Source of the DNA: Lytechinus pictus
Lineage: Eukaryota
DNA: 64,000 bases
Reading direction: 5' to 3'
Assembly: GCF_037042905.1 (NCBI RefSeq)
Contig: NC_087251.1
Location: 10,914,001-10,978,000, forward strand
The notes beneath the pieces were generated by a model. The model searched no databases. It worked only from the letters and a program-made list of their open reading frames with translations, and was not told the origin of the DNA. Shown one piece after another: positions 1,168 through 41,100 of this stretch. The position numbers were made by a program, and so were the translations under genes. Numbering within the stretch: the stretch's first letter is position 1; each line of letters opens with the position of its first letter.

Positions 1168-1468
1168 CCCGGGTGGACCACTTCCATTGATGAGTGGATA
1201 CCAGGCACGACCATGGGGTTTCGAAAAGCACCCTAAACAAGGGAAGCAAGTCTTTTCCAGATTATGAAAATGCATCTCTTAACAAGTATTTAGCTTGTGA
1301 AACCCTACAAGTTTTGAAAACATATCCTCCTTTTCAGTATTTTAAACATCGTTTTTGACACCCTTATAACATTACATAGGCCTATACGTAACGTACTTGC
1401 CTACTCTTTCCCTTTTTACGCGTGGTCGCGCCTGGTTTCCACTCTTCAATGGAAGTGGGGCCCCCGGG
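1168..1468. mobile_element. Shorter member of the CCCGGG-terminal MITE family
   Basis: Same imperfect TIR as 39201-39845; no clear TSD. Confidence 0.7.
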
Positions 1469-2689: not shown

Positions 2690-2900
2690 ATCATTTTTAT
2701 TTATCGGATTAACGAACCTTATTTCGTTTTCGGTGGAACAAAACTTCGGAATAACGAACCCTATGTCGTTTTCAGATTAACGAACCTTCGGAATAACGCC
2801 AATGTTCGGATTAACGAACATCGAGGTAAAGGCAATTTACGTGTTTCAGAATTACGAACCTTCGGAATAACGAATCTTCGGAATTACGGACTGTCACCCT
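2690..2900 (+). repeat. Short tandem array (ttcggaataacgaacc)n
   Basis: Multiple degenerate copies of cgga(a/t)taacgaacct. Confidence 0.7.
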
Positions 2901-4110: not shown

Positions 4111-4371
4111 CAGTGGCGGATCTACGGGGGGGGGGGGGGTAGGGGTTTACCCCCCTCCTCCACATGATATCTCTGGATATAACTGTATATTAAACTTTTA
4201 CTTCGTGTGAAAAGATCTTATCATGAACTGCCTTTTACGGTTTCCATTATGCTAGTAGATGCCAGTAAAACATCACTTAAGGGGTTAAAACAAAAAGAAA
4301 AAGCATCACCCGCGGCTCACGGGTGACGGTCCAGTCAACTCCCCTTGGAAAAAAAGCTAGATCCGCCCCTG
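4111..4371. mobile_element. Small MITE upstream of MAT2B
   Basis: TIR cagtggcggatcta / tagatccgcccctg with a flanking atgca direct repeat. Confidence 0.65.
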
Positions 4372-4806
4372 ATGCAGGATAAAATCTCTCAGCAATTTCT
4401 AATTCCTTGCAATTTTCTGATTTATTTCTCTTTTAAGAACATATAGAGAAGTATCAGACTTTTGAAAAGGTATGTTAAAACCGGTCTATAAATGTGAATG
4501 GATAACTTTATCAGAGGTACACGTAAAAAAGAAAGATTCTTGACAAAATAATATACTCTTTGACAAGAAACTTTAATTTTTATAGATTTCTACTAACACT
4601 AAGGTATGTAAAAAACTACCTAAACTTGATAAGATTGGGTGCGTTTTTAGTGCTTTGACCTCGGCTTTTGTAGTTACCAAAGCTAACGGAGTTTAAATGA
4701 TTACTCTAGGCAGCAATTGCCATGCCAACCAACTTTTTTGTTTAAAGTCCGAAATACATCACGCAAGAGGTCTTGGCCATACATATTGATTGTTAACATT
4801 TTAGCC

Positions 4807-10640: not shown

Positions 10641-10671
<31 letters not shown>

Positions 10672-13600: not shown

Positions 13601-13751
13601 GATACGCCATGTAATAAAGTCCACTTTTCATGTCGGAAGAAATATCAGCTTGCGCTCCGCGCTCTAATCGATTGTTGAGTTATATATATATATATATATG
13701 TATAACATGTACATGTATATATGTATAACATGTACATGTATAACTTCACAC

Positions 13752-13823
<72 letters not shown>

Positions 13824-16800
13824 CCATTCTGTTCATGGTTCCATTGCTTTTTATGTCTTGTTTTAGGTCTAAATCTAGGGGGAAAATCACCTCGCGTCTA
13901 ATTCTCTAATATGACGTTTCTTCTTTAAATAAAAAACGGACTTGAACTTTCCAGTTTTTAGATCTGAATTAAAAAAAAATAATAATCAGCTCGCGCTTCG
14001 CGCTCGCATTAATTGTTTGATTACATACTCATCCAGGTTATGATTTCAAAACGTGGTTAACATGTTCAGTTCTCAATAATACTCATATTGTACATGACAG
14101 AAAAAGTGCTTAGATTGTCCGAGTTTCGGGCGGAAAATTAGAATTTCTGTTCGCGCTTCATGCACGCTCACATCATAAAGTTATGCTTATATATCCATCC
14201 AATTTATGGTTGAAAATGTGATTCGAATATACATTTTTTAGTCCCAGATATTGAAAATGTACAACTCGCTCTCGCATTTTATTGATTGGTGAGATTTGTA
14301 TTACATGTACATTCATGAGTCACTGCAAAACGAATACTTTTGTAGGTGAGTATATTAAAAATTACTTCTGTGTTTCGCGCTCGCACGAATCTTTTCGTTA
14401 GATACGCATCTTCTTCATGATTACAATAACTGCCCAGAATATTCAATTCTCAGTTCTAAATAAAAATATACAATAAATTTAGCTTGCATGTGATATATTT
14501 AGACCTCATGAGATAAGGTAAGATAAGACTGTATTAGAACTTCGATCTTTAGTTAGGTCAAGCCCTCTAATATAAAATGAATAAATAAATAAATAATAAC
14601 GTGAATAATGCCCCCCCCCCCCAAAAAAAAAAAAAATGATTTTGGCGGCCTATCGGGAAAGTGTGAATGATAATTCCCACCCCTACCTTTAACTGATGAA
14701 AGCCTGTACTGCCCTGGGTATGGTGGAAGAAAATGTGACTGAGGAGAGTGTTGAACACTTCCAAGACTCATGGTCGTATAGCTGACGTCGGTACACGTTA
14801 CCGATATACATTTGTAGAATCAAGGGTTATACCGACAAACATTTTGAACATTTACGATGGAGCGTAGCTCGTGAGCAAAAAATAAAATAATATAATCACT
14901 TTTTAAAATGAACACCACTTCTCCCCCCCCCCTCTCCCTTGCATGGTTGTGGAAGTTCGTAGTGTTTTTCGTTTGCGCGGGGGAGGGGCTCAAATAAAGG
15001 ATTATAGGTATGTTCGTTTTGATCACGCGAATCAAGCAGTGATAATAATACATGGGCACCTTGAGCACCTAACAAGATGGACACGTGTGCTATATATATA
15101 TTATATTATTTTATTACTATTATTATCATTACTTAGAACTTATACGCTACTCGCCCCTCCCACTTCCCTCGTCTCCATTTTTTTTTGAGGGGGCCGCAGG
15201 TATAGGCATAATCTATAGCGTTCCCGCTCCCCCTTTCAATTTTTTTTTTTTTTTCATCGTCCATTCTGGAGATATATGATTTCATCTCTCCGATCCGCCT
15301 CGTCAGTGTGTAAATGCGCTAGCGTGAAGGGAGGGGGTCGCTAGCAACCAACCTCCAACCTTGGACAACACAAGAAATAGGAGAAAAAATAAAGGACATT
15401 TTAATATTAGAAACGAAAATGTCTGCTATGTTCTTGTTTGTCTTTTCCCCTGTTTATATTCCATAATGATGTAATGATTTTCATTTCAAGATTTCAAAAA
15501 TCACATGTTCAGACCCCCCATTCCTCCGTGTCCAGGGTTGCACTTTGTGAATAAGAGAATTCAACCTGGTCACACGTCGTTTTATTTTCGTTTTCAGATC
15601 CTTTCATTTTACTTCTCTCTCCCAATTTTCTTTCTTTAGTCATGTTCGTTGTGTTGTAGAACAATAGAGTGGACTCTTTGACGTCGAAATAAGGTTACCA
15701 GACTAACGAAGGGAATGGGAAAGGTAGCGATAAATGGAAGCGAGGGGAAGGGGCACGCCCTCCTAAATTTTAGATAAGTGGGGTAGTTACCCCCTTAAAA
15801 AGGAAGAGGGAAAGAAAGAAAGAAAAAAGAAAAGAAAGGAAAAATGTGAAAATAAAAATAAGAAAAAGATGAATATCACATGTTTACTAAAACCAATAAT
15901 ACCAAAATAGCAGTTTTGACAAAGGAAAATACTTAAAATTTAAAGCAAAATAATCATACAATCAAAAATAAAAAGTTTGTTTTCCGCACCAAAATGAAGG
16001 TGTTTGGATCAAACCTGTACATCACCCCCATATAAATCTTGGAGGTGATTTAGCACCCCCGCTTACAAAGGCCATGTGCATCGGTGTTTCCACAGATCCA
16101 AAACAAACTTCTCGAATTTATAGACATTTCCTAGAATTTTTAATTTGATTTTAACAAAAATTGTACAAAAATGTAGCCAGCCGAAACTTTCAGCAAACAA
16201 TTTTAAAAATATAACATGAATGTTGACAGTTGCTATGTTTAATTATTGTTTACTTGTAATCTTTGGATTTCCCGAAATTTCCTGCATGGATTTGTTTCAT
16301 TCGGAACCTTTCCTGGAAAAGGTAAAATTTCCCGAAATTTCGGGAGGAGTGGAAACACTGATGTGCATCACGGGAATATCTATATATAACCCTTCATAAT
16401 GCAATGTTATATCTAAGTAATATCACGAACATGCTATTGAAATAAAAATGTAGGATTTTAATATAAAATCGAAAAACTTTTCAAATTCAACTCTTTGCGT
16501 TTACTCGCATTTCTCTATTTTATTACTAAACTTTATATGCCCTGTCGCCGAACCCTGCATGTGTCTTTCCACATTTTTTAAAATCGGATTAAAGTGACAT
16601 TTTTAGATTGGTGACTTCATTTTTTTGTACAAAATACCATCTGGACGTCTCAGGATTCTGGAGTTTCTTGGGGCTTTGCTATCCATGCCTAGAGAAAGGG
16701 GAAATAGAGAGGAACGATAAGAAAGGATATAAGAAGAAGAAAAGTGAATGAAATAAGAAAAGAGGAACGATTTGAAAACAGAAAAAGTAGAAATCATTAT

Positions 16801-19800
16801 ACAAAAAAAATCAATCGCGAATATACTTTTTAAAAAATCAGCTTGCGTTTTACATGCGCTCTTATCATTATTCAGGAAAATATGCAGCAATATTCCAAAA
16901 CAGTTTATACAATGTTTCGTATTAAGATCTTAATTTCAACAAATATCAGCTCGCTTGGCGTATAAACTTTATACTTACCATAAGACCGTATTTGATTAGA
17001 ATGACCCGATTCAGCTCTTCATGTCAAAATATTAATAATTTTCAACTCGTTCTTCGTGCTCCGCGCTCGCACCATTCTGTTGTATAATCGATGCAATTTA
17101 ATAAGTTTGAATCTCGGGTTTTCAGTTATTTTTTTCCAAGCAATGTGCTTATAATGACAATCCTCGGTCCTGCTAATTGTTAATATCATAATATGTTGGG
17201 TGTGGATCATTTGGTGTGTGTGGGTTGAATCATATTTTTAATAAGTACACTCTATTATTCATGCCAAAATTTTAAACGATATTATGTTTCTTTTGTTATG
17301 AAAATGCTAATACGCATTTACGAGAACAATAAATCAAATCGAATTGTTTAAGATGAACATACCCTGCGTGATTACCAAAAGTGAGTAGAATGACCCGTTT
17401 AAGATGTTCATGTTCATAAAAAAGTTCGCGCTCCTATATTTATTTTCAAGGCGAAATATAAAAATAAACATTACCTTGCGCGCTTCGCGCTCGCATCATT
17501 AATTTAGGCCATATAGGTCCATGATTGTAAGAATAAAGCTACGATGTACTTAAAAATTCAGACTTTAGTTGCATGGGACACCCCCCCCCCCCCTAAATGA
17601 TAATAATCAAGCATTTATCAGCCGATGTGGAAGAAATGTGGATGGAAATATTTCTTACCCCCCCCCCCCCCCGAAGTACGTAAAAATATACATTCTGGCA
17701 CTGGCGGCGGAAGATCATGCTTCAACACCGCCGGAACACCGCCAATCCAGAATCTAATATTTTTATGCTTTCGCCGCCGGCCACAGAATAATGCAATTAT
17801 TTTTATGTCCTTTTTATCCCCAGCATATACCTTTATATTTTATATATTTTATGCTGCACCAAATCTTTTTATATAATTATTATAAAAATGTTCGTTATAT
17901 ACATTGGTTGTTGGGCTGTGCAGTTATGTGTTGGAGGGGGGGGGGGGACAGCTTTACGTTGTGCAGGGGTGGATCCAGGTTTTTCTAAAGGGAGGAGGCA
18001 CAATTCATGAGAAAATTTTGAAAAGAAAAAAAAAAGGTTTTCATCTAAAAATTTACAATCTAAAGGTATTTCGCCAAAAATTTGTCAAGCAAAAGAAGAA
18101 GAAGAAAGGACCTCGCGTCCAAAGGAAGGGAGTGCATACGTGAGTAAAATATGGCAGATTTACTACACAAGTTTTGACTACTACTCTCAAAAAGGTGCTC
18201 GGCCCATTAGAGAAACAGTCTTGAATAAATGAAATGTTATATTCATGTGACTGCACAATTAAAAATGAATGTCCTGTATTATGTTCATTTTTCGAGCGAT
18301 ATGGGAAGAGTCTTACGTAATACCAAGTAATTTGCATACCCACATAAACAACGAAACGTTCACGCATGGGATAAAGCCATCCTTCCCTCAGCTAGCCATG
18401 GTCCATGCCTCAGCTCACGACACACGCAGAGCTCGAGAGACCACATGTTCTTATTCTATTCTCAAGTACATGTATGATGTTCTGGATCGCACATATTTTA
18501 TTCTGGTGCTACACTTTCGCTTTATCTTCATGTAATATTAAAGTACATCGCCCCAAATTTGCCACGTTACTACCATCCCGGCGAGGAGTCAGTAAGTCTG
18601 CATTTTTCTTATCTTAGATGGTCTGTACATAGCTTTCGTTGCGCTATCAGAATCTGTTTTTCTTCTTTCATACTACTTTCTCTGCTTCGACTAGAACCGT
18701 CAAGGCACTATAGAAAAGAGCCAGCAGAGAACATGCGCTGGATGTAATGTTTACAATTCTCAGTGCATGCCGGCCGGAGCGGCCTTGCCCCCATTCACTA
18801 TTGGTTGATTGACAGTTCTCGCTTGCGTGTCCGTTACGATCTCAACGCAGAGGGAGGCATACAATTTTATTTTCAAATCGGGATGTCACAGTAATTTGGG
18901 AAATCGTCTAGTAGACGAGTTCTAATATAATCACATTTTCCTACCTACTAACAACTTTTCATTCAAAATAAAGATGATTTCTAGGGTTTCTTAGAACAAG
19001 TACATAAACTCATAAACATAATTCATCTTAATTTGAGAATTTTTTAAATCAGCTTCTCACAATGTTAAACGATCCCTTTAAAGGCTATGTTTACTCGTGG
19101 AATTTTTCGAGATGAGAAGTATATCATCACGACAAGGTGCTAAAACACGACCATTGTCATTTTGGATTGAAATGGAACGCAAGAAGGTCATCAAGTCATC
19201 TAACATGAGAGAATGCCGTTTGCCGAAAACATGCTACTTGGGTGAAGAAGTCCAGTAGCTTGTTTCCAAATTCTGATTGGTCATCAAACGCGTCGGTATA
19301 ATGTCCCAGTGCATAAATATTTCGTAATTGGTGACGTCATAGCCGTTACTTTCAGCGAAATTTTGTACATTCTTCGACGATAGTTGTTCGTTAGATTGGG
19401 TTTTGCCTGCGAACCATGTGAACCTGTTGAAGATTTTTGCCATGAGGTTTTCTATATATAATATCAAGAAAACAAGAAATTTGATAAATATGATTGATTC
19501 CCGTAATGTGCAACGCTGTCACTTTACTTATTAGAATAAATATAAGAAAATAGCACATTATAGCTGTAATGGCAAGGAGCATAACTTTACAAATTCATAT
19601 ATTAGTAGGCCTACACTATTGATTCGTATAATTTACACAGAATATACAAAAGATTCACAAGATAAATGTGAAAACATAGCGTACAAGAAAATGTCCATAA
19701 TCAATAATTTTCATAACAAATTTGTGTGGCATTTTGTAAAAAAATCATTGGCAAGAAATGATGTCATCGTTGCCCCCCCCCCCCCAAAAAAAAAAAAAAA

Positions 19801-22800
19801 AAAGACAAGCCAAAAACGGGTTTTACACCAAAAGTTGTCGCATTTACGTTTCGAGAAGTATCTGGCAATAAAAAAAGAAAGCATCACACATGCATTGACA
19901 TGATGGGGCGCCCACCCGTCAGTAACGCGCAAAAATTAATCCTTCTTGATTGCTGTTATCATATCTAGCGCTACTATACCCCCACCCACCGAAGATGCTT
20001 GTCGGGATTTTATTTTATAGGTGCTTATTATCATTATTTCTTTCTTTTTTTGAGGGGGAGGGTTGGCAAAAATGTTTGCCCAGGAGCGAATCCAGGTTTC
20101 GCCAATATGGGGGAGGGAAGGAAAAATATGTTCATCCACAATTTCCCCGATCGGCAGCTAAAAGCTGATTTTTGTTAGTAAGTGTTTTCTAAGGGGGGGG
20201 GGTGTCCTAACCATTGAGTGAAGTTTGAACTACATCTTACCTTTTAAATTTACCCCCCCAAAAAGAATTATCTGACAAGGCCGAAGTAAATACATGTAAT
20301 GCGAGCGCGAAACGCAAGCTCATTTTTTTTAACATTTCATTTACATGCATATTGACATGACAATTGAATGTTATGAGCAGTTTTTAATCATGAATAAGAT
20401 AACTAAACAATTTAGCGCGAGCTGAACATTAATAAAGGAACTTTTTAATGATGGTTTGCAGAATATAACTCAGGAAGAGAAGACATATGTCAAACAAATA
20501 AAAAAAATACAAGCGCGAAGCACGAGCTGAAAGTTCTAACTGATCTGAAAAGGAACCTGTTAATGACGGTTTGTAGTGACTCATGAAGAGGATACATATC
20601 TCACCAATTAAATAATGTCATGGCGAATAAAAAAAAAAATCGTTATTCCGACCGGAAAACTTTCTAATTAGAGCAGCTTTTGTATACATGAACATGACAG
20701 GTATTTAATTAAACAACTAATATAAGCACGAAGTTCGAGCTGAAAATTTTTGATTTTCCAACTACAGAAATATTCAATGATTTATGTAATGTTTCTTCAT
20801 TTTTCCATTTCATTTTGTTTGCTGATGACACTTATCTAACATTGTCTCTTCACACAAAGATTTTGATATACTCCAGCGTAAGACAAGTGAAGAACTCCGC
20901 AAACTTATCGACTGGTTTGATTCCAATGAGTTAGCAATCAATTATGATAAAACATGTATTTTGTATTTCTCCAAATCAAATATTAAGTCTCCTCACCACA
21001 AAGTCAAAGTGAAAATTAATAATTTATATTTGAATGTTTCAATGTCAGTAAAATTCCTTGGAGTTTTATTAGATGATCAACTTTTTTTCGAGACCATCGC
21101 ATGAATTTACTTAATAAGATTTTCAAGAATGTTGGTATCATCAATACATTACGTTCTATTTTACCCGAAAAACAATTATTTATGTACAACTCACTTGTAC
21201 TTCCTTTTATTTATTATTGTAATATTACTTGGGGAAACATAGGAAAAAATCAATTAGAACCCTTTCATAAATTGCAGAAAAAAGTCTTACGTATCTGTAC
21301 TAAATCATATTTATGAATTTAAAGTTGCAGTTTTGATGTATTATATTAAACAGGAAATGGCACCTGTAAACATTATGATCTTTTTTATCATAATAATGAT
21401 TTTCACCAGTATAATACTCGTTCAGCTTCTCATTTTCATCTTCCACTGACCTCAAATAATCAAATTCATAATTCTTTTAAACATGCAGGACCTAGAATTT
21501 ATAACAATTAGATCCTATAATTCGTTCAACTGCCTCCTCATTTAAAATTTTACTTAAAAGACAATTAATTGGTGGTTATTCATCTTGATTCCCTTTCCCT
21601 TTTCTAAACATACCCTCCTCCCCCCCCTCTCTCTCTTCTCTCTTTCTCTCTCTTTTGTTTGAGTGCAATGGGTCATGGATGTGTTGGGTTTGGGTGATTC
21701 TGTGTTTGATGTGTGAATCAGTGAATGTATAATGATTATAAATGATTATTTGAATACTTGTAAAGGGGCAACTGCCTACAAGATTTTAATCTTTTTGGTT
21801 GCCTCTTACCATATGTTGATTTTTCTTTTACATGAATGTATAAATTATATTTATTTGTTGTATATTTATTTGTTGTGTGTCTTGTTACATTTATGCATTT
21901 ATACAGTATGTTATTTTACATTGTATTTTAATATTTTTATATGGTTAATAAATGAATTGAATTGAAATATGGACATTCTAAGCTCGTTTTTTAAATCATG
22001 AACAAGATAGGTATCTAATTAAGCACCTGACATGCCTGATGCAAGCGCGAGATGATTTTTTATTTTATTTGAAAACTTGACAGTTTTTGTAACCATGAAC
22101 AGGATTGGTAGCTGATCAATAAGTTCAAGTGAAGCATGAAATGAAAATATGTGATTTTCTGCTCTGAAAACCAGGGGGCCGTTTCATAAAGCTGTTCGTA
22201 AGTTAAGAGCGACTTTAAGAGCGACTGGTGAACCCTTCTTACGCGCTAAAGCATCGCCAATGAATATACCCTTTACCACAAGAAAGGATCACACTCACGG
22301 GAATGTCTGAAGCGAATTAACGAAAAAAATTTAAAATGAGAGATTCGACATCAGTGGCATCTTTAATTATGTAGGTGTCGGGAATACTCACAAACACAAT
22401 TGCAAATATCTTGATGCGTGGCGTTTGCATTATTCAATTGTGTGGGATGATGGGCATCTTGCCATCAGTCCTGATGGACATATTGCCATTTTCAAATGTT
22501 CTCGATGTTCTTTATCTGCCTTACACGGTTTAGTTTGATATATTTTCTTGAAAAAGATGATTTATTGTAAACCTAACATTATTGTTCTCATTATTATCTT
22601 TTATAATTGTTGGATTATTCTAAAGAGTCAATTGTGTAATTATTGAAACTCCGTGTAGAACTTGAAGGTCCCGTGTCCATCGCTACGGGACCCAACCCAA
22701 GTACATAATGTGGAATCCCCTTGGGTGTCATCTCGTCTGACTGAGACTCATATAGCAAACTCGAACATTGGTCCTGCTGCTTTACCCAAAGTACCAATTC

Positions 22801-27100: not shown

Positions 27101-27656
27101 TTCTATGTGCCTATATTCTTTATTGTATAATGTGTTCGAGTTAAGTATTCATTTTGTAAACAAAACAGATACTTATAGTATAGTGGACATTTCCATAACG
27201 CAAATAATATAACCCACCAAACTTGGTTATACATGTATAACGACGCTTAAATTTTACCCAAGCGTAACCAGACTTATGGACGCTGAGGGCATTCAAGGAT
27301 TTTCTTCCTTCATGTAGACATCTATCCGGATACACCTGGGTAGAGGGTGGTAAAATAAAAGATTGTCATTTATTCATCTGTGTGTTTAGGATCCCGAGTC
27401 GGTCAGTGGTGTGTTCCATTGGTGCAGAGCTGACTTCATGACGAAATACACAATGTTAGTCACAATAGCCAATGTCTTCAACCTTCCTCATGATCACATT
27501 AGAGCTAACCCAGTCCAACCAACAGGTGAAACGCCACGCCCCAAGGATTGCTCCATGGATCGATCAAAGCTGGTAAATCTGGGTATTGGACAGACCACAC
27601 CCTTCACCGAAGGGATACAAAAAGTGATGAAACCGTTCATCTCAAAAAATCAATGA
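4807..27656 (+). CDS. MAT2B: Methionine adenosyltransferase 2 subunit beta-like / RmlD-family extended SDR (5 exons, 301 aa)
   Basis: Exons 4807-4983, 5492-5606, 6061-6213, 25928-26121 and 27390-27656 are all GT-AG bounded with consistent phases (0,1,1,0) and total 906 nt. Motifs: [11 protein letters not shown] (Rossmann fold), [35 protein letters not shown] (YxxxK), [47 protein letters not shown], colinear with vertebrate MAT2B as recalled. Confidence 0.93.
6482..8203. mobile_element. Non-autonomous TIR element with internal ctcgcgcttcgcgctcgca tandem array
   Basis: Ends catagg-cggcggaagc / gcttccgccg, direct repeat gtcaggag at 6474-6481 and 8204-8211, and degenerate tandem units at about 6950-7930. 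Confidence 0.7.
11974..13611. mobile_element. Non-autonomous TIR element interrupted by a LINE fragment
   Basis: Termini cagtggcgtatctag / ctagatacgccatg and internal gcgcgaagcgcgag motifs. Confidence 0.6.
12385..13035 (-). mobile_element. L2/CR1-group LINE 3' fragment, degenerate
   Basis: LHWLPV..RI.FKI and AFSV.GPKLWN.LP motifs in ORF 12570-12881, with a (TTA)n-like tail at about 12385-12435. Confidence 0.8.
13681..13822. repeat. (TA)n microsatellite, interrupted
   Basis: Directly visible. Confidence 0.95.
20790..21966 (+). mobile_element. Degenerate CR1/L2-group (Crack-like) LINE 3' fragment
   Basis: LFADDT codons near 20815, KFLGV.LD near 21050 and YNSLVLP...YCNITWG..LQKK.LR in ORF 21101-21316. 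It ends in an aataaa-(tgaat)n-type tail. Boundaries are approximate. Confidence 0.75.
23155..23359 (-). pseudogene. Histamine N-methyltransferase-like first coding exon (orphan or fragment), nested antisense in MAT2B intron 3
   Basis: Acceptor tgtaacag at 23380-23387, ATG at 23359, reads [69 protein letters not shown], then a weak GT donor at 23154. It resembles the HNMT N-terminus up to SAM-binding motif I. No downstream HNMT exons were found. Confidence 0.6.
23850..24162. repeat. Compound microsatellite (ATT)n-(AGT)n
   Basis: Directly visible; it generates the poly-L and poly-I/poly-S ORFs. Confidence 0.97.
24625..24824. mobile_element. Foldback/hairpin MITE with 8-bp TSD
   Basis: Arms 24635-24724 and 24731-24820 are complementary at 86/90 positions around a 6-nt loop. 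The direct repeat gatggaat flanks it at 24617-24624 and 24825-24832. Confidence 0.85.
24963..25352. repeat. Element with degenerate tgactttggcct tandem units
   Basis: Repeated ccttggcct/gactttggcc motifs and imperfect termini gagtgttgtgc / gcacaccactg. Confidence 0.45.
25493..25654. mobile_element. Short palindromic MITE
   Basis: ggggagcgtttcat ... atgaaacgcccccc termini with internal tccgacaag/cttgtcgga inverted motifs. Confidence 0.6.
26320..27028. repeat. Degenerate gacctttgacc tandem-repeat element related to the 47-48 kb element
   Basis: About 4 units with tgacctttgaccc...cacatgtggtattac, ending in a gtctc...caggcgagac-aaaa stem-loop. Confidence 0.6.
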
Positions 27657-28166
27657 GATAATTTTTTTATTCGATAAACTGGTACTCGGCTCAGGCTTAC
27701 CAATCATACCGATAGCTACACTCGAAGAAACACAAGTCAAATGGATTTTGAAACCTCCTTGGTATTACTATTATGTATGATGCAGGGCTATGTGCAACTT
27801 TACACCTGTTATGTCGCACCTTTCATAAAGGAAAGCACCTTTAGAGTTAATTCTTTCAGAAAGGATATAGGCATGAATCTCTAAAGCAATTGAGTAACTT
27901 TTTGGACTTTTGCTAACATCAGTGTTGTGGGACCCTAAATGTCGTCAGTGCACGCAATTATGTTTCAAGAGGACAGCCATAAGTATCATTACATGCTCTG
28001 CTGTATAAAAATATTATTTTTCATCCGCTCCCTAGTCTTATTATTCTAAAACTTTAGCGGTTAATAGGCCATTATGACACAATTTGCAGACAATTTTTAA
28101 GATTGTTGTGTATCATAATTTAAGAGCTCAAAACTTTTGGACCTGAAAAACATCAAGGTTTACAAT

Positions 28167-31100
28167 ACAAGAATTGAAATATGGGGAAAAACCCTCCAAA
28201 TATTTTTTTAACCTTATGAAAAAACGTAGGACAGAAAAACAAATGATTCAACTGCTTGATAAAAATAATGATGAGTTATATATGGATGAGGAAATAAAAC
28301 GAGAAGTTCTCATGTTTTATGAAGAACTTTACGGTTTTCAACAGGTGTCAGATTTTCGTGATATTTTGCAAGAACTAAAAGAAATCGAACATAATCCAGT
28401 TTCAGACGAAAAAGCAAAAATGATAGAAGGAGAGATCTCTTTCGAAGAAATTCGTAAAGCAATTAACAATTTGAAGACGGGGAAATCCCCCGGTCAAGAT
28501 GGGTTTACTGCAGAATTTTATAAGTTTTTCATGCAAGATATTGGAATTTATTTATCAAGAAGTTTGAACTCAGCATTTGCTTGTGGAAACTTATCACATT
28601 ATCAATATTTAGGAATAATAACTTTGTTACCGAAGGGGAATAAGCCGAGAAACTTGCTCAGAAATTGGCGACCAATTTCTTTACTTAATGTCCAATATAA
28701 GATTCTTTCCCATTGTATTTCGAATAGAATAAAACCGTTGTTAGAAGAAAATATACACAACGATCAAAAAGGTTTTCTCGCTGGTAGATATATAGGTGAA
28801 AATATTAGAATTATTTATGATATAATTTCCTACACAGAAAATAATGACATACCTGGTATAATTCTTTTTATCGATTTTGAAAAGGCATTCGATTGTGTTT
28901 CGCATGATTTTTATGGAATGTACTGCACTTTTTCAATTATGGTGATAATATTATAAAATGGATTAAAGTTATGTATGCTAAATCTACTTCTAGTGTTTTG
29001 GTTAATGGCTGTTTAACCTCACGTTTCAACATTAAAAGAGGATGTCGCCAAGGGGACCCCCCCTCTCTCCCTATTTGTTTATACTGTGTGCAGAGATCTT
29101 AGGAATGTTAGTAAGAAAATCTCAACGGATTGAAGGCATAGTTATTGATAAAAAAGAATACAAACTATTGCAATATGCAGATGACACCGTTTTGTTTCTC
29201 GATAGTAAGGAAAGTTTGCAAAATGCACTAGACCTTTTAGACATGTTCTCGAAATATTCTGGTTTAAAGGTTAACATGACTAAACGCAAATATTGTGTAT
29301 TGGGTCTCTGAAAAAAACTGTTCAGATTGATTTGCCTGTGACTGATAAAACGTTGATTAACATGAAATTCGTTAGATATTTAGGAATCGATTTCTGTATT
29401 GGTCTGAAAAATCTCCCTGATTTCAATTATAATAGAGTATTTGATAAACTAAAAAGACAAATGATATCATGGTCAAAGCGTAATATTTCTGTATTTGGTC
29501 GTGTAATCCTTGTCAAATCATTGCTTGTTTCACAATTCAATCATTTATTCATGTCTATTCCAAATCCGTCTAAACATCTTTTAAAATCAGTAAATGTGTC
29601 TTTTTACAAATTTATATGGAAGGGGAAACCCGACAAAATAAGCAGGAAACAGATTGTTTGTAACTATGAAAATGGTGGACTTAAAATGATCGATGTTGGA
29701 CACTTTTCTAGAGCTTTGAAGCTGTCTTGGATAAGAAGAATACTGTCAAACTCATGTGAAGAAGTTTCTCATTTAATGTATGCATTTTTGAAACCGTTAG
29801 TAACATTAGAATGGGGTAAAGGGGATATATATTTCACCAAACTATCACTCATGGTCCGAAACAGTTTTTGGAAGGAAATCTTTATTATAGTTTCCTCCTT
29901 TATTCGAAATGTTCAGTGTACTTCTCTTTTTTGGCCGGCTATTCCTTTATGGTACAATTCTGATGTAAAAATTGGTGGAAAAGGTATATTCTTAAAGGAA
30001 TGGTGGGACAAAGGCATTAGATTTATTAACGATTTATTAGATGAGAATGGAAAACTTCTGGAAAGAGAAGAGTGTGAAAAAAGATTTTCAATCAAAATTC
30101 AGTTTCTTCATTATTATGTCTTATGGCAGATTATTAAATGTAAGTATAAAGCTCAGTTGAATACGTGTAATATGAAATCTAATGAACCATTATGCCCTGC
30201 TTATATCTTTCATTTACTGAAGGACAAAAAAGGATGTAGACATGTATATTATATCATGTTAAAAGAAAATGATGATAACTTGACTAAATTGTGTAATAGA
30301 TGGTTTGTCAATGGCATTTCGATGGACACCAGAGATATGAAAAATTATTTTAAAACGATGTTTCGATGTACAACTTATACTACAATGAGGTACTTTCAGT
30401 ACCGACTGCTAAATAAGATATTATATTTGAATAAGGATCTTGTAAAGATGAAAATAACTGCAGATGCAAAATGCTCTTTTTGTGGAAGGGAAGAAGAAAA
30501 CGCTATACATTTTTTTTATCAATGTCATGTGGTAAATCTTATCTGGGTACGATTTACAGACTGGTTATACAGTTTAACAAGATTTAGAATAAATCTTTCT
30601 GCTGTACATGTTTTGTTTGGTTTCACAGAAAAAAGAAACGATGCTTTAAATTGTTTAATAATTTGGACGAAACAACAAGTATACTCTGCTCGTGTGGAAA
30701 AAACCATACCTAATTTTGAGAAAATTAAACAATATATAAGAAAATGTTACAAAAATGAGAGGCAAATCAGTATTATGGAAAACAAAACACATAAATTTGA
30801 TAAAAAATAGGTAAATTTCGAAAGAATTCTTGTCATTTTGTAATAAGATTTCCGGACCTTTATATGTATTTCTGTTTAATGTAAACATATTTTCATGATG
30901 AATGTGCAGTGTGTTTCGGGTGAGAGGTGATCAATTATTGTTGGAGTGGCCTTGTTCGGTGCTCATTTGTTCTTTGCTGCTGCAAGTGTCGGCGGCGGAA
31001 CGGATGGGTGTAGGACATGGCCACTCTAGTATCGGTTGTCTTTTGCTTGAAACGCCCTGTAGGCCTATACTTTGTACAAAATTATGCTATGTGTGTATGA

Positions 31101-31189: not shown

Positions 31190-32275
31190 AAGGTTTACAA
31201 TGGGATAGATGACTGATTTTTCTCTTGCCATTTTTCAGTCGTACTTTATAGTTTTGTAGTTTCACATTGCTGTGAAAAAAAAATCGTTCAGAATCATTTT
31301 TCCCGTTCTTACTGTTAGATTAATTCATTTTTTTATTATGAGATAATATACTGCAGTTACAACGACAATAATGAATATCTATGAGTAGTAATGTTTACAA
31401 GGTTTATGGTAATATATCGTTTCATTTGATTAAATTAATTATTGGACGAATCTTGTGTTCATCTTCTCTGCATTTTGAACTTAAAATTTTGAAAACCCGA
31501 CGCAATAGGTTTTTTCTTCATGCAAGCCTGTGCACTGGATGGAGACGACGACGATGACAACAGTAAGAGGGTGGTGTCAGAGACGAGGCGGTCCACATTT
31601 TAAACCAACTCCTTTGAAAAAAAAAAGGAACCATTGGGCCCCTCGTCATGCCCGAGCTGCCGAACCCTTGAGGATGCTAAAGTCACTGGCCCATGTTATG
31701 AAATCGGGGTTGGTCTAACTCTGCTAAAATAATTACATGGTATGCTGAAAATATAACCAAAAAAATGCTTACATTGTACGATTGATTTTCGCTGTTTGTT
31801 TATTTATTTTCCGATTATTAAAAAACACAATAGATAAATAACATAGATGGCATCAATTGAAATAAACAAAATGAATTGCAAATATGTTGAATAGATAAAA
31901 TAATCGAAATGATTGCCCATTTTAGAGTCATTAACATAATTACTCTGTTCTTCCATGGGGTCCACTATAATCATGCGATATAGCTCCTTCATCATGCTAT
32001 ATAGTGACGAAGAAAATTGATTCAGTTATTATTCTAATGCAGACAGTTGAAAACGAACAGAGTAAGACATTAACAGCTGATAAATCTAATTTGTACTTTT
32101 CTTGATTTTTTCACAGTTGGCTTTCCATAGTTAAACCAGAACGTTAGACCAGGGTTTGAATCAAACTCAAGTTCAGAATACGGACCATTCTATTTCTGCT
32201 TATGACTTCCATGAATCCCTGAAGATGCACCGCACTTTCCAGTTTTAATGAACTAGATGAGAGTAGTCATATTAA

Positions 32276-33200
32276 GGACGTTCCACAGTTAAAGTGAAAT
32301 CCATGTCATTTTCACCAAACTTTGCACATAGATACTTTAGAACCTTAATATTCGAAATACGCAAAAATCAACATAGGTCCATGTGCTTGATTTTTTGCTA
32401 TAGAGTTTCAAAGTTCACCCAAATTGATGTTCTTAAGAATTGCGCATTTAAAAGAATTCGGCATTTTTAGACCGCCCAAGATTACTACAATGAGTTTAAA
32501 CCTCTATTGCTCAGTCAAAATACATGAAAAAGTCATCAAATTTCGCAAGAGAGTTAATAATTGTATCGTTAGAATGGAGAATCTATTTATAGTGCTATTT
32601 GTTTGCAATTTTAAGTTTAACAGCACGTTCCGTTCTTAAAAATGGCGCAAAAGATAACAAAATCCCAATCTAAAAAATGTGAAATTTCAGTAACAAACTA
32701 CAAAAGTACAATAAATGCTGCACTTTATTCAAAATCCATGTCATTTTCACCAACTTTTGCAGAGGAAGGTATACCTAAGACGTACAAACATTAAAAAATA
32801 GGGGTTCATGTGCTTGTTTTTAAACTATCAGTATTTTATTAGAGCAAATGTGCTTTTTAAAACACCAAAAATGCGCCGAATGCTTTGTATCTATGTGAAG
32901 AAAAAATCAAAACCACTCACCATTTATTCAAAGTCGGGGTAATATTCGTGATTCTTGGCAGCACTGCAGAGTAAAGTATTTTGAAATTTTAGATATATTT
33001 TTTTTAATGGTCCATGGAATAATTCAATTTTTTAGCTTCATGAAGTAACGCATCGGATCTGCAGTTAAAGTGCAGAAGATGAGAAAAATCAGCTCATACC
33101 CGCAGCTAATTAATCACCTGTTCATCCATTGTGACGTCAGCGCACAGAGTGTAAACTATGCGCAGATCATAATGCGCACAAACATAACTGTGGAACGTCC
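32276..33200. mobile_element. Non-autonomous TTAA-targeting DNA transposon (Kolobok-like)
   Basis: Perfect 16-bp TIR GGACGTTCCACAGTTA at both ends, flanked by TTAA at 32272-32275 and 33201-33204. Confidence 0.88.
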
Positions 33201-34406
33201 TTAAAAGTTACATTATGACAGCGCTTCTTGGTTATAATAAAGGATCATTACTTTCAATATTTATCGAAGTCACCAACTATTACAGACTCTTACTTTCAAT
33301 AATTTGTTCATTATAATTCAAAGTAAGTATCGATTTCCATAGTATCTTTGCAAATAGGGATCAAGTTTTAGTTACACATCAATTAATAATGCTATATATC
33401 CACTGAATACAATAACATGAGTAGAATATATATTTTAGGTATGCTTCTTAAAACGAAGAAAATTACAATTCAAGTGGACACACAGTATATATTTTCACAG
33501 CATACAGGTACAAAAGTATATCAGATACATTCATTTAAAAAAAATACCTGAAAAAATCATAGCAATAGAAAAGTGAGGTGAACATAGTATAAAATTACGT
33601 ACATAGAGCATAAGACTTGTGTAATACTTTTCAATTCAATTTAAATCCTTTTATGGGAATCTATTATTTCCATTCTCAAATTATACCCCAAACTTGCATA
33701 CTCTCCATTACATTATATTAACATAAATACAAAATTCAGAGAGCTATATATAGGGAATTGAAATCATTAGTGATTTTCAATGCTACCAAATATAAAATAC
33801 CTTAGTTATGCATCTAATTGACTTCAAAACATGATATGTGTACGCAATAAATGAATTCGGTGAAATGAGATGCATAAGCATATTTTCAGAAAATCAAATT
33901 TCAACAGATAAATTAATATGAAGGCCGATAGTCGGGCGTGTCTCGGTCAATGAAACAGATACATCTTACCAGCATATCGATTATGAAATTCTTGTTTTAC
34001 TAATAAATTTAAGAAAATAAGCGAAGATAGAATATGCTATTCTCAGCATACTAAGTTACGACAATCATCTGAAGAGGTAAGTTTGCGGGTCATCATATTT
34101 CAGGCTAAATTTTCCATCCTGGGAACCTGATGATATTACAATTTTTCCTCATTTTGTAATGAGTCAAAGTATATAAAAGTTCCATTAACCTCAATTTTGG
34201 CTACTTGAGCTTTGAACTTCAAAAAAGGTGTGACACTATGGTGGGAACACCTCCATCCCGAGTAGAGCGTCAGGTTTCACATCAGTGGAATAGAAGAGTC
34301 GCGGGGATATTGCACCTAGACTTGAAAAAAAGGATAGTGAACAATCATGGTAATATGGCAGCAATTTAATTCAACAAATTCGTGCATTTTCTTTTTGTAT
34401 CCAGTC

Positions 34407-35021
34407 TCATGACTCGATGTAAAGCTTCGAGTAAGAACTTGACCGATTAACTTTCGGAATCTCCATCACATGAAACTTCGGAAACTGTCGCTCCAGGACA
34501 TACACGGTTTTGAGATTTTCCATTGACCGTTCGGCTGAACTCGTTAATCTTCGGTCCTGTGCATCCACGTACATCTCGATGTATCCAAGATATATCTCCA
34601 GCTTCGGCAGAGTCGTCTTCAATCCATTCAGGAGCTGATCAATGAAGATGATGCAATCATTACATGGGGATAAGTAGGTGAAGAGGTACAGCGAATGTTG
34701 GGCGTGGTCGTTCAGGTGTACCATATCTTGGAGATTCGATATGAGGTGACAAAGGACTCGTTGTTCAGCGTGCTCAATGATGCCATTGGCCTCTCTGCAA
34801 CTTGTAGCGACGGCAAAATCCCAACTAAGGAATCCCCCACCTCCGAATGGATGACCTCGGTAGATAGGTTTCTCACTGTCAAGTCCAGCCATGTCCAAAG
34901 AGAAAGCAGCAAATTGTTTGCGACCAGGGGATCGCATGCTGAATTCATCTCTGAAAGTTAGATACAGACGCTTGAAATATTCCTCGACTGAGTGCGTTCT
35001 GAATTCTTGATAAAATTCCAT
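34407..35021 (-). CDS. AID/APOBEC-like (SNAD-like) zinc-dependent cytidine deaminase, 204 aa
   Basis: Intact ORF with HAE (34764-34772) and SPCNDC (34653-34670) zinc/catalytic motifs 32 residues apart. It has a hydrophobic strand LYLFTYLSPC, an N-terminal KQFAAF strand and a downstream EIYLGY..Y strand. The start context aaaATGg is strong and a splice acceptor lies upstream at 35111-35125. Confidence 0.88.
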   Translation of the reverse strand: MEFYQEFRTHSVEEYFKRLYLTFRDEFSMRSPGRKQFAAFSLDMAGLDSEKPIYRGHPFGGGGFLSWDFAVATSCREANGIIEHAEQRVLCHLISNLQDMVHLNDHAQHSLYLFTYLSPCNDCIIFIDQLLNGLKTTLPKLEIYLGYIEMYVDAQDRRLTSSAERSMENLKTVYVLERQFPKFHVMEIPKVNRSSSYSKLYIES

Positions 35022-35480
35022 TTTTTCTGGATTCTCTCAGAAATGTTCAGGAAGTAGTCCTGTTCGATATTATCCCCAATGCGATTTATTGTTTCAGGTT
35101 CAGGAGGCCTCTAGCTAAAAAAAGAAACAATAACTTCTTGATCAAGGATCTGAACTTGAATGTCTCGATAGCATTGTCCAAGAATAACAAGTTGAAAAAA
35201 TCATTTCAATCCTGGTTTTCTAAACCATAAATAGTTTTCACCGTAATAATGTTCATGCATGCACCGAATAATATTGGTTACAGACTAAACGAACGAGCAC
35301 CGCCCCGCGACTAATCATGATTCAGAAAAAGAATCTGTTTATAAACATAATGTCTGGGGAATCCCCATCATCTATGTCGATGGATACGTATACATGCGAT
35401 CATTTACGATCATTGCGCAACACCATGTGTTGCATCAAAATATCTTTTAATCATTGCAGGGCCATTGTCGTGACTCTTAC

Positions 35481-35560
35481 CATGGTTATGACCGGGGTTA
35501 TGACGGGCAAACATTGATGACGTTAATGCAAAAATAATTGCTAAGATTGATCTATTCAAC
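35481..35560 (-). other. Putative upstream (5'UTR or first-codon) exon of the deaminase gene
   Basis: Bounded on the minus strand by the acceptor cttttttgcag (35561-35571) and the donor ATG|gtaaga (35480). Confidence 0.5.
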
Positions 35561-35929
35561 CTGCAAAAAAGGTTAAATTATTAAGTTACGAGTTTTAATA
35601 GGTACAACTCAGATTTTCTCAGATGCCAAATGTGTATGTAACCTACATGGCGAAAAAAATTGACATGATGTAGGACAATAATATACCTAATATGCCGACT
35701 TTAAAAAATCACACTATATGGGGCTAGTATCATGAAAATATACATTTCCTTTGTTCAAATAAGACACGCTTGTCGATGGAGGGGGGGGGGGTAAACTATA
35801 TCGAGGGACCATAGCTACAGGATAGAGAATGGAAGGAAAAATGTAGGAGAGGAAAGAATGGAGACGGCATGAAAGGGGGAGGGAGGGGGGAGAGCGAAGA
35901 GGGAGAGAGAGAGCGAGCGAAGAGGGAAT

Positions 35930-36051
35930 GAGAATTTCCTACCCACGAGAAACAACTTGCCTGATGCATCATGCATACGATTCAGGGAAATCCCCTTGAC
36001 GACAACAGCTCTGCGACGGGGGAATTCCCTGAGAGCCATTTCATTACGTCA
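35930..36051. promoter_or_regulatory. Cluster of NF-kB-type sites plus a CRE/bZIP-like site upstream of the deaminase
   Basis: GGGAAATCCCC at 35985-35995, palindromic GGGAATTCCC at 36020-36029, one-mismatch GAGAATTTCC at 35930-35939, and TTACGTCA at 36044-36051. Confidence 0.55.
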
Positions 36052-37683
36052 TCTCACACAATGTTCCAAAAAATAATTCCAAAATAATTTGACTTTGTAA
36101 TTAATTTCGCACTGCACAATTTCACGTGTTCAAATATGTTGATCATCATCATACTGATTATACTAAGCACTAAATTAATTTACATTTTATTTTTAACAAA
36201 GAAATAACAACTATTGTCACATTAATCTAATTCAAAAATATGCGATCTAAGTTTATTAGATATATCAAAACAATCATAAATATATTCATTTCAGATTAGT
36301 CACACCAAATTGATACATTCCAATCATTATCAATATTTCATGAAGAAAAATCACTGTAAAAAATAATGATAAACGAATGGAGAACTATGTAATCAGTTTG
36401 AAATAATGAAAACAATTTTTTTTTTTGGGGGGGGTATAATAATAGTTGATGCTTTATACTATCACCAATGCCATCATCATATTATTTTCATAATGTACCT
36501 CTCTGGAAGCAGGCAAAATTCTCTTGCTGAATCCAAAAAATTAACCGTCAATGTAAATCAAATCATCATATTCATAAAATAGGGTTTATGAATTTACACA
36601 AAGATGACATATCAAAAAGAAATCATGTGGTTTGGCAATGCCATGCTCTTAAAAGAAAAGGAAAAAAAACAGGAATAATGTAAAAACATGTTCTTCCACA
36701 ATTCAAAATATATAGCCGTGAGAATCATCACAATAATAATAAGAATGATGATAATATTACAGTAATAATGATACTTTTAATCTACTGCTTCTGCAACTAC
36801 TAATTACGTCTGCTAATAATAATAACAATAATAACAATTCAACATGTTTCCTGAATATATCCTTTCCAAACATTATATTGAAATGAAATATAATGGTCAA
36901 AGCTATAAAATTATCATATAACCCATAACCATTTTTTTAATGGAAACTGGTGATTTGTCATGTTCCATTAAACTAAAGTATAAAACTATAAATTTATTCT
37001 TCCTGTGGAAACAACCTTTACCAAGGTTAGCATACCTTCTACTGAAAACATACTGGACACCACAGAATTATCTAAAAAAATTAAAGAAACCATATAATTA
37101 AATATCAACCCTCAATAAAAGATTAATTGTTCTACATTACTTATAATATTCGATTGATTGAATGCAGCGATGTCAAAATAGAGTTAACTAGGACTTGGAA
37201 AACATAATGAGTTGAAATAAAAAAACACATAAGAACAGAATACTCCTGATGAGGAACAATGGAATACGTAAATCAAGAGATTTCATCGACCAGAAAGAAC
37301 ATCGGAGTTATATCATTTAGAACAATTTTAAGTACATCTACTTTCTAAAAACTTAAACACGGCCTAATTTCCATGGCATAATTCCATTCATTCTGATTTC
37401 AACATCAGATCATTACTCACACCAAACACAAATTTTGAGATGGCAATATGACTGTAAACTCTAATATTGAATTTGGAAGAAAAAAATTGGTATTCCCAAG
37501 GAATCTACCAAACCTACAACCTGTAATATTTCATCTTAAGCTATTAATGTGATTAAGATCAGGAAGATTTTTTGTCTTCTACATATTCAATTCATGGATA
37601 ATGTTGTGTTTTATTTGAAGAATAGATGTATGGGATAACTGCCTGATGTTATTCTTATTATAGTAGTATATAATATACATTGG

Positions 37684-38010
37684 GGCCCGTATTCTGAAGT
37701 CAGGTTTAACTTAGACCACGGTCTAACTCTGACCACAGTCTAACTCTGTGCTAAAATTATGGGAAGCCAAACGTTTCAAAGTTTTGTTACGATGAATGCT
37801 TCTCATGTTTACAGTGCTCTTTACTAATTCTTTAATGGTGAAGACAACTGTCATACTTATCCTTCCCAGGCAGTTAATAATGTTTTGGGAGTCAAATGAG
37901 CTGACACATTGAACCTCTACTGTTAGAGATATATGTAACAACTGGCTCTCCATAGTTAACCAAAACTTAGAACCAGAGTTTAAATTAAACCCGACTTCAG
38001 AATATGGGCC
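37684..38010. mobile_element. MITE in the cysteine synthase 3' flank
   Basis: TIR ggcccgtattctgaagtcaggtttaa / ttaaacccgacttcagaatatgggcc. A degenerate relative lies at about 31687-32187. Confidence 0.7.
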
Positions 38011-38105: not shown

Positions 38106-41100
38106 TCATGAATGGAGGAAGCCGTGACATTCTTCTGGTACGCTATCAAATAATCCTAAAACATTCAAAAAGAGAACAACAATCTTCTATCATCAATAGG
38201 AAACAATAAGTCAATTCACACTTGAAAAAAAAGAAAAAAAAAAGTTAAATAAAAACTACAAGGGAATTTTAAGATGTAGAGAGGATTATAACAAATATTG
38301 TGAGATCTAAGATTTTTTGTCATTTCGATTGGAAAAAAATATCACTATTATTACTTTTTCCCTATTTAATAAGTCTTTTCAAATTTCCTAACACTTTAAC
38401 TGTGAAAACAAAATTGGGGCTATGATCAATTATCTCTCTTTTGCACTAAAAATACAAAAAATAACGATTAAAAGGAGAACAAAAAAAGTGTGGACAAAAT
38501 TATTTTTTCTTAAGGGACAGGAGTACCTTAACTATATAAATTGTCCTAACTTGGAAAAAAATTACATTGAAAAATTAAATAATGCATTGTTTTTTTCAGG
38601 AATCCAATTTCGCTTCTTTCCACTTAATCCCCATTATAAAGAAAAAAAGAAAAGGCAATGAAAAGATACTAATAAGATTTTCTGCTGGAGTGTGTGTGGC
38701 CTGGACTTTAAAGTCCCTGAATTACCTTTTTCTTTGAGCCAAGTTCTGTTGAAGAGCCTTGCATAGTATCGTTGACCAGTGTCACACAGGCAGGAAGCTA
38801 CCACATGCCCAGGTCCGAGTTGCTTAGCAACCTAAATACAGATTAATAATTTTTCAAAAATTATAATAGATCATAGTGTAAAAGTAGTTTGTACAATCAT
38901 AACTAATTTTCAATTACATTTTAAAACTGAAAAAAATTATGTATGCCTACAAATCTTTAAATGAATTAAGGTATATCTGCACATGAATTACATCAAATAA
39001 AGTCATAAACATAACAGCAGTACTATAGTGGCTGTTGTTTATGCTAATATTACATTTCCTAATCCTACTACTTCTTTAATTCTCTTGATTACTCATCTTA
39101 CTACTTCTACAACAACTTCCAAAATTAATTTGAAGGCAAAACACTTTTTATGGCCTGTAAGGGGTGCAGCAATTGTGCTCAACACGAAGCAGTTGACCAT
39201 CCCGGGGGGGGGGGGCCACTTACATTGACGAGTGGATACCATGCGTGACCAAAAAAACACGTAAAAAGGATGTCTTTTTCAAGATAGGGCACGTTACGTA
39301 CGTAACGTGATAAGGGTGTCAAAAACACAAAAATATTGAAAAAAGGGTATCTATTTCGCTCGGAAAAATATACGTGTTTAGGGTCAAATATGCGGGGATG
39401 ATAAAACAAAATCAAAATGTTTTATAAAGGATGTCCTTTTTGCCCCAACACTACGTGTATAGAGTCCGATTTGCGCGAGGTGTGAAAGGTGGAGCCGTAC
39501 AAAACCAAAATAATGGTGTGTAAAGGTATAACCGACGACCGACGGACCCATGACATAACAATAAAATATCGCTGTACTTGTTTAGGGGTTCATTTCAGGG
39601 AATACTTGCCAAGAGTATCGTTTTATTTCTAATAGGCCTACTTGTTAAGTACATCGCTGTACTTGTTTAGGGGCTCAATTCTACTTGCCAATAGTATTTG
39701 TTTCCAATACTTGTTAAGGGTAGGGTTTCACACGCCTTGTTAAGGGGTGCATTTTCAGAATATGGAAAATACGTGTTTAGGGTGCTTTTCAAGACCCCGT
39801 GGTCGCGCATGGTATCCATTTGTCAATGGAAGTGGCCCCCCCGGGTTGACCATATAGGTCTTCCCTTCTCAGCAAAGACCGATACAATTACACATATGCT
39901 GCCCTCTTCAGTCCAATGTAGGCCATATATAATAGCCACCTTAATTATTACAACTGAGAGTACTGAAAACAATTCAGTTGCAATGAAGCTCATAGTCAAT
40001 GTGTATGATAATGTTGAAGTCAAAGTAAAAACCCCACATGGCTTTTTCTTGTTTGTGATAGTGAAATATCATGGTGGGGGGGGGGGGGGAGAAAAAGAGA
40101 AGAGGAAAAGAAGGGAATGAAGAAATTGGAAGAAAATGGAAAGAAGAGTATAAAAAAGATAGATCTTGGCCTTGTATATCTATAATACGCCTATAATTCA
40201 ATTCAGAAAAATTAGTAAAACTACCTTTTAGGTGCCCCCCAAAAACAATACCCTTTCAGACTTCATTTCAAAACCAATTGAAGTAATAACATATATAAAA
40301 TACATTTCTTCTCTCAAAATTTGGCAAACAAACCATTATTGTTGCAGGTTTACAGCAACAGAAGAAAAGTGACAGTTTGAAAAATACCATCAATCATGAT
40401 ACATTTTAGAATTATTTCATATCCAGTTTGGTATAAAATGGAACTGTTGAGTTTACTAATATATTCAAATTTTATGGACAAGTGCTTTTTCTTTAGCTTC
40501 CTCAAAGCTTGCCAGAGGATTTTACGAGACATAGCAGGACGTCATAAATGCGGATTGCTATTTGATTAATATTAACATGTTATAAAGAAATACATTATTA
40601 CCAAAGTCCAGGGAAAGAAAGATAATTAAATCATTTAAAATCAGGTCTATTCTCAAGAATTTACACTGAATGGAATTTGGACAATACAATAAGAAAATAT
40701 AGCACATTTTATCAAGTTTAATTATGTAAATGTAGGTCAAATGAAACTGCCTCAGTTTTTACCATATAACAAGGAATTGTGTATGCATTCTTTTTCTTTC
40801 AAAATGTAAGATTTACAGATGAATTTTGCACTAATATTTCTTTGACTATAATGTCATTTCAAAGTAAAGCATGTTGCTCAGAGACAACAATACAACCCCT
40901 TCTTCCTTCTGGGAAAAAATACAAGAGAGATAGCAGGAGATGAATTTATTTGTTTTCTAATAATAGAAACAAATAACACCTGCATAGATTGAAATCAAAA
41001 GTTTAATCAAGCCACAAGTGATTGCTTCTTCACGGTGACTATATACCATAAACATCTTGCTACCACACACACCGATCAACCACAACGTGTTGTTTGCTTT

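Follow-up and report, generated by a model that had tools for sequence, protein, structure and literature searches.

A single-exon deaminase gene and its surroundings

The window (the whole 64-kb stretch of Lytechinus pictus DNA that was analysed) carries on its minus strand a gene for an AID/APOBEC-like deaminase, delimited by the following features; X1 and X5 are sequencing runs described in the next section.

33180..34406, minus strand: 3' UTR of at least this length, the X1 contig breaking off at the terminal inverted repeat (TIR) of an element at about 32272-33206
34407..35021, minus strand: coding sequence of the AID/APOBEC-like deaminase, single exon, 204 amino acids; SpAIDL9 orthologue by sequence, with HAE at residues 84-86 and SPCxxC at 118-123
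35022..35312, minus strand: 5' leader of 291 nt, unspliced in the X1 and X5 contigs, with more than one upstream ATG
36229..36257, minus strand: probable 3' end of a cysteine-synthase-like gene lying upstream; RNA-type cover begins at 36229, beyond an AATAAA at 36257-36252

The predicted protein aligns with SpAIDL9 colinearly over its full length, with 155 of 205 aligned positions identical (76%) and the same HAE/SPCxxC core; H84, E86, P119, C120 and C123, which belong to the motif HxE-x(24-36)-PCxxC, are invariant in all 14 aligned sequences. In the protein cluster of a homologue at 75%, 6 of the 13 members are named S. purpuratus AID-like deaminase 9. By sequence comparison, the gene at 34407..35021 is the Lytechinus orthologue of SpAIDL9 (LOC115929474). 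Pfam APOBEC_N scores 22 bits, under the cut-off of 25, NAD1 and related families are likewise sub-threshold, a PDB sequence search returned only dCMP deaminase (E 0.61), and the AlphaFold model is poor (pLDDT 50). Relatives are scarce: one search gave 4 of 29 candidates, and another gave 5 representatives with E no higher than 0.001. According to the available text of PMC5889660, echinoderm AADs fall in known clades. In the assays of PMC5956068, SpAIDL9 gave no mutator activity in E. coli at 37 C and no striking increase at 25 C, and was apparently inactive in that host.

The deaminase's own protein cluster has two L. pictus entries at 99%. Near-identical AIDL9-like entries thus come in twos, on one L. 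variegatus contig and in L. pictus (P0003/P0021, P0024/P0025); they may be tandem duplicates or haplotype copies, and a low-copy duplication is possible. Residue 117, just before SPCxxC (position 34671), is Leu in the window as well as in the two RNA-type runs; Phe stands there in 10 of 11 other close homologues (in a TYFSPC or FYSPC-type context) and in the species of run X11. L117 is probably an allele. A frameshifted N-terminal extension, with an open frame from 35111, was rejected: the orthologues start at the same ATG region and the contigs have no indel there. When the N-terminal extensions of S. purpuratus-type translations (present in 5 of 7 proteins) were compared with the leader, only short matches with E of at least 1.3 were found beyond the coding start. 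In a metagenome scan for the locus, none of 170 pattern matches was confirmed.

A first-pass annotation of this DNA, made from the letters alone, had described the deaminase as a compact module between two housekeeping genes. The module amounts to a single gene. The description fits the upstream side, where the neighbour ends 0.9 kb away, but not the downstream side, where the neighbour, a MAT2B/RmlD-like gene on the plus strand (last exon about 27390-27656), lies some 6.7 kb off across a LINE and a TIR element. The upstream neighbour is a PALP cysteine-synthase-like gene on the minus strand, with its last exon at about 38155-38106. A block of RNA-type cover opens at 36229, at a distance of 23 bases beyond the minus-strand AATAAA, and extends to about 37705, at the edge of a small inverted-repeat element; the segment 36229-38105 (minus strand), bridged by no mapped contig, is the probable 3' UTR of this gene, about 1.9 kb long. 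The space from the apparent start of the deaminase transcript to this probable end is a gap of 916 bp, 35313-36228.

A broken LINE-type reverse transcriptase (RVT_1, zf-RVT) lies at 28147-30810 (plus strand), just after the MAT2B-like gene. The element of about 930 bp at about 32272-33206 has matching terminal inverted repeats, and the deaminase transcript contig ends in its right end. A small inverted-repeat element, 37684-38010, lies inside the probable 3' UTR of the cysteine-synthase-like gene, and a 634-bp element with 43-bp terminal inverted repeats (39209-39842) lies in an intron of the same gene, part of it recurring at 1168-1328.

An unspliced transcript reaching 35312

Four of the 23 listed sequencing runs (X1, X5, X11 and X21) were mapped on 33900-36700. 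Two of these, X1 and X5, come from different studies and were treated as RNA, which they probably are, because their cover stops at the gene edges; each has one contig over the coding sequence, with 0 and 1 differences respectively. X21, a set of raw RNA reads, placed 5 of its 8.7 million reads on the mapped region and none on the deaminase. The X1 and X5 contigs run unspliced across a potential acceptor before 35115 and reach 35312 and 35273. Depth in X1 is flat at 11 up to 35312 and, among the pieces listed, none continues past it, so that we regard 35312 as a dead end rather than a branch, in keeping with a 5' end. The same facts (no continuing contig, no raised depth among the pieces listed) led us to reject a reading of TTAG/TC at 35312 as a splice acceptor. 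Contigs of this kind carry neither strand nor true transcript starts, and they lose rare isoforms.

The first-pass annotation had proposed a spliced gene with an exon upstream:

35481..35561, minus strand: putative upstream exon, flanked by good look-alikes of an acceptor and a donor but lacking RNA cover

This exon has depth 0 in all three RNA-type runs (X21 having no reads anywhere on the gene), and the contigs from the two probable RNA runs read straight through the proposed intron, so the spliced model is not supported by the transcripts at hand.

The leader contains five upstream ATGs (35260, 35256, 35228, 35204 and 35174) that open frames of 2-20 codons, all of them 5' of the acceptor before 35115. 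That acceptor, TTTCTTTTTTTAG, is strong and looks unused. Translational damping by the upstream ATGs and a minor spliced form are both possible. Two other searches yielded nothing relevant to the gene: an Rfam match to snoZ5 (26 bits against a gathering threshold of 60, E 0.41) is at chance level, and a bacterial promoter scan has no bearing here.

A probable TATA core with an adjoining kB site

Immediately around and above the contig end we found the elements of a probable promoter (positions relative to an apparent +1 at 35312):

35309..35314, minus strand: initiator-like TTAGTC; A at 35312 is the apparent +1, and the X1 contig ends flush with it
35338..35343, minus strand: TATA box TATAAA, first T at -31
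35356..35366, unstranded: perfect 11-bp kB site GGGGATTCCCC, -54..-44; sole copy in the window
35413..35420, unstranded: C/EBP-type palindrome TTGCGCAA, -108..-101; sole exact copy in the window, with 22 of the looser class

A strict pairing of TATA box and initiator (Inr), a test chosen after the contig end had been seen, is present at only 5 positions when both strands are counted (127,900 in all), 35312 among them (20 with a loose pairing), and 35312 is the only minus-strand case between 33000 and 38000. From the contigs together with this motif geometry we infer both the strand and the exact start, and transcription would thus begin at about 35312 from a TATA and initiator core.

Neither the proximal kB site nor the C/EBP palindrome is mentioned in the first-pass annotation. 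The kB site was found independently of the flagged cluster, and the probability of a perfect site in the -100..-30 slot is about 0.007. GGGGATTCCCC is identical to the mammalian MHC-kB site, as given in the available part of PMC9991059. NF-kB-type regulation is better supported than the first-pass annotation could know, because a further perfect kB site stands at -54..-44.

A distal cluster of kB sites at about -0.7 kb

The first-pass annotation had drawn attention to 35930..36051, which corresponds to -618..-739, about 700 bases upstream of the deaminase gene. We recovered all four of the motifs it listed there, at the coordinates it gave:

about 35820..35933 (approximate), unstranded: GA/CT-rich tract, about -510..-620; simple sequence that draws unrelated contigs
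35930..35939, plus strand: kB-like GAGAATTTCC with one mismatch, -627..-618; frequency within chance
35985..35995, unstranded: distal kB site A GGGAAATCCCC, -683..-673, with the perfect core GGGAAATCCC at 35985
36019..36029, unstranded: distal kB site B, 11-mer GGGGAATTCCC, -717..-707, with the perfect core GGGAATTCCC at 36020
36044..36051, unstranded: bZIP site TTACGTCA/TGACGTAA, -739..-732, at the level of motif only

Sites A and B are 34 bp apart, centre to centre. The purine/pyrimidine tract said to adjoin the cluster is also there, as a purine-rich run from about 35820 to 35933. The bZIP octamer TTACGTCA is one change away from CRE and one change away from the PAR/NFIL3 palindrome. A GAS-like TTCAGGGAA at 35981-35989 overlaps kB site A; this class is common, with 50 strand-matches in the window.

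We measured the kB sites against chance using the consensus GGGRNWYYCC, as it appears in the available part of PMC9991059. The window has 18 strand-matches against 3.7 +/- 2.3 in dinucleotide shuffles; they amount to 9 distinct sites (4918, 17575, 28480, 29052, 34829, 35356, 35985, 36019 and 61324), of which three fall inside the 916-bp gap (Poisson P about 1e-4, from the six sites outside). Those six include some within coding sequence or a LINE, two of the nine matches being inside the reverse transcriptase remnant. In Markov simulations of orders 1, 3 and 4, with 150 windows each (450 windows, 31,050 bins of 916 bp), a kB pair no more than 35 bp apart came up in a single window of the 450, under order 3, and at least three kB sites in a single bin of the 31,050 (10,350 per order), under order 4. 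The two perfect sites about 35 bp apart are thus real and above local chance, and the consensus kB sites of the gap exceed the window-level background. The third, one-mismatch site at 35930 is present, but its class stands at chance level (94 sites against 82 +/- 11 expected, a count that 19 of 100 shuffles reach), and because such sites are not above chance we gave it no weight. TTACGTCA is single in the window; its CRE/PAR class has 4 sites, and the probability that one lies within 50 bp of the pair is about 0.005. At the empirical rate of 0.015 chance pairs of kB sites per 64 kb, some 200 chance pairs would be expected in a genome of about 0.9 Gb. For this reason the pair alone is not significant genome-wide, and its weight lies mainly in its location: all the kB sites of the gap are at -44 to -717, within about 1 kb of the apparent start. 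That they belong to the short stretch above an AID/APOBEC-like gene that is transcribed is supported.

The cluster had been taken for the promoter of the deaminase itself. This is not supported: the apparent start is some 620-740 bp away, RNA-type cover is absent at 35968-36155 and at 35404-35685, and a motif scan found no TATA motif and no TATA+Inr pairing near the cluster. Its distance of about 400 bp from the putative upstream exon was computed correctly, but to an exon that has no RNA support. The cluster could still serve as proximal promoter for a second isoform, spliced and made only upon challenge, with a first exon ending near 35942, the exon 35561-35481 and the acceptor before 35115. 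Sequences that look like good splice sites (35562/35480 and before 35115) speak for such a form, as do a weak donor at 35941 and the tendency of contigs to lose rare forms; against it, X1 and X5 show neither a joint nor cover of the two segments just named, the motif scan gave no TATA near the cluster, and the leader of such an isoform would itself carry upstream ATGs. We consider it highly improbable. Among the mapped runs X11 is the only one with a joint listed, and that joint lies inside the GA tract.

Repeat status and the counterpart in a related species

The cluster does not belong to a multi-copy repeat as far as the window shows, since no further copy is found in the 64 kb. Run X11 is DNA from a related species; of the 7 differences listed for it that change an amino acid, 6 agree with the L. 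variegatus entry. Its depth over the cluster is 15-20, against 12-50 in other single-copy-looking pieces, and one contig, of depth 15, reaches from 35832 to 36123 and carries 16 substitutions plus 20 gap letters, which indicates that the flagged stretch has a counterpart in that species and is not high-copy there. The stretch diverges by 5.8%, against 3.6-10.4% for the other six pieces, and so shows no extra conservation. Of the 139 differences of X11, the 40 given by position all come from other parts. X11 cover has a hole at 35310-35497, over the proximal promoter, a hole that proves nothing.

These data bear on whether the distal cluster is neutral, its G- and C-runs beside the GA tract mimicking kB sites, with the proximal promoter alone mattering. 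The ordinary divergence is in keeping with neutrality, as are the chance pairs expected per genome, the selection of this window from many, and the six of nine perfect sites that lie outside the gap. On the other hand, the Markov models that keep G-runs (orders 3 and 4) give a pair in 1 of 300 windows, a bZIP site adjoins, and the 0.9-kb gap that holds the pair also holds an independent proximal site. Neutrality of the cluster is, in our estimate, distinctly unlikely.

Expression of the orthologue and the case for inducibility

The wider premise that vertebrate AID/APOBEC3 genes respond to NF-kB was checked for Aicda: in the available text of PMC3628980, mouse Aicda depends on an enhancer with NF-kB, C/EBP and STAT6 input. 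Sea urchins possess NF-kB, and A20, IkBzeta and C/EBP genes take part in an IL17-dependent response of theirs (PMC5660111, in the part available). For the orthologue itself the published data on induction are weak or negative. By qPCR on 3 Vibrio-injected and 3 seawater-injected animals, SpAIDL9 changed in a manner not strictly correlated with infection; SpAIDL2 alone was clearly Vibrio-induced, at 24 h; and SpAIDL transcripts were gut-enriched and strongly variable between animals (excerpts of PMC5956068). In Table 1 of PMC13043383, as far as available, raw reads for LOC115929474 number 0-14 (median 3) in every one of 29 libraries of coelomocytes kept ex vivo, control or UVB, in which IkB has 2,903-20,343 and A20 399-13,172 reads. 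Coelomocyte NF-kB target activity is thus insufficient to switch on the purple-urchin gene, a statement that concerns another genus, one cell source and cells without microbial challenge. Positive rank correlations of the AIDL9 counts with IkB, A20 and IL17 in this partly available source (rho 0.41-0.49) were dropped, raw counts being confounded by library size. Within a single study, runs differed in their word shares (0.45 and 0.41 against 0.12 and 0.09); these were left unused, the runs having no treatment labels. The SpAIDL9 gene has no matches in the supplements of PMC12616046 (5 files), PMC13736523 (7 files) and PMC5457136 (3 files), and PMC11688612 and PMC13428168 yielded nothing on it.

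Near-silence in coelomocytes with high NF-kB target levels, and the lack of strict induction by Vibrio, would be expected if the sites were bound without challenge induction, a p50-type homodimer holding a mutator-like gene down or the gene being steadily expressed in the gut. The symmetric MHC-kB sequence, which is that of the proximal site, has the p52 homodimer as its tightest binder, without activation, in the available part of PMC9991059; these dimer preferences come from mammals, however, and may not hold in urchins. We regard binding without induction as unlikely, if deserving of some weight. Against it stands the architecture of the gap, as several kB sites with a C/EBP site and a TATA core, here three kB sites, are the usual layout of inducible genes.

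We favour, with modest confidence, the reading that the gap is an inflammatory-type TATA promoter with proximal kB and C/EBP sites plus a distal enhancer of kB pair and bZIP site, active where the tissue permits and with translation damped by the upstream ATGs. Of this, the motifs, their excess over chance, the identity of the gene and the unspliced transcript are observed, while factor binding, enhancer action and induction are predicted. On this proposal 35313-36228 would be the entire upstream control region of the AIDL9 gene; the perfect kB and C/EBP sites would act directly upstream of the core, and the kB pair with the bZIP site would work from about -0.7 kb as a distal enhancer. Dimers of Rel/NF-kB, together with C/EBP or an ATF-type bZIP factor, would raise transcription upon inflammatory signalling; induction would probably be confined to permissive tissue, for instance the gut, and the five upstream ATGs would limit how much protein is made.

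Relation to known promoters

The predicted arrangement resembles the COX2-type TATA promoters with NF-kB and C/EBP described in the available text of PMC3628980, sharing with them a kB site just above the TATA box, a C/EBP site about 50 bp further and extra distal kB sites. In the mammalian inflammatory promoters binding and synergy have been shown, whereas in the Lytechinus gene they are only predicted. Promoters of the IL6/IL8 type are of the same TATA, NF-kB and C/EBP kind. The region-4 enhancer of mouse Aicda likewise places upstream NF-kB, C/EBP and STAT motifs on a cytidine deaminase gene, but it acts from 8 kb upstream, only in B cells, and with intronic silencers as a counterweight (PMC3628980, in the part available). 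We claim no homology between the two designs; the likeness would be convergent or a general trait of immune genes. With a known orthologue as the gene and a textbook design as the promoter, the surprise is low. In a search of mainly open-access papers, we found no description of an AIDL9 promoter, and the gene only in Liu et al. 2018 (PMC5956068), the main text of which gives no matches to "promoter", "NF-kappaB" or "upstream".

A more elaborate version of the proposal, a two-level switch, is very unlikely in our judgement. In it the kB/bZIP modules (-50/-105 and -700) would raise transcription in the gut or after viral-type signals, and splicing to the acceptor before 35115 would drop all five upstream ATGs, so that protein would be made only when induced. 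If true, a deuterostome that lacks adaptive immunity would echo the way in which NF-kB and C/EBP control Aicda in vertebrates.

If the sites of the favoured promoter-and-enhancer arrangement work, they would make up a compact, fully mapped control region of 0.9 kb for an invertebrate AID/APOBEC-like gene, would tie the family directly to NF-kB signalling, and would offer a reason for the erratic expression of SpAIDL9. The region is easy to test, because stable transgenesis exists in L. pictus (PMC11361634, in the part available).
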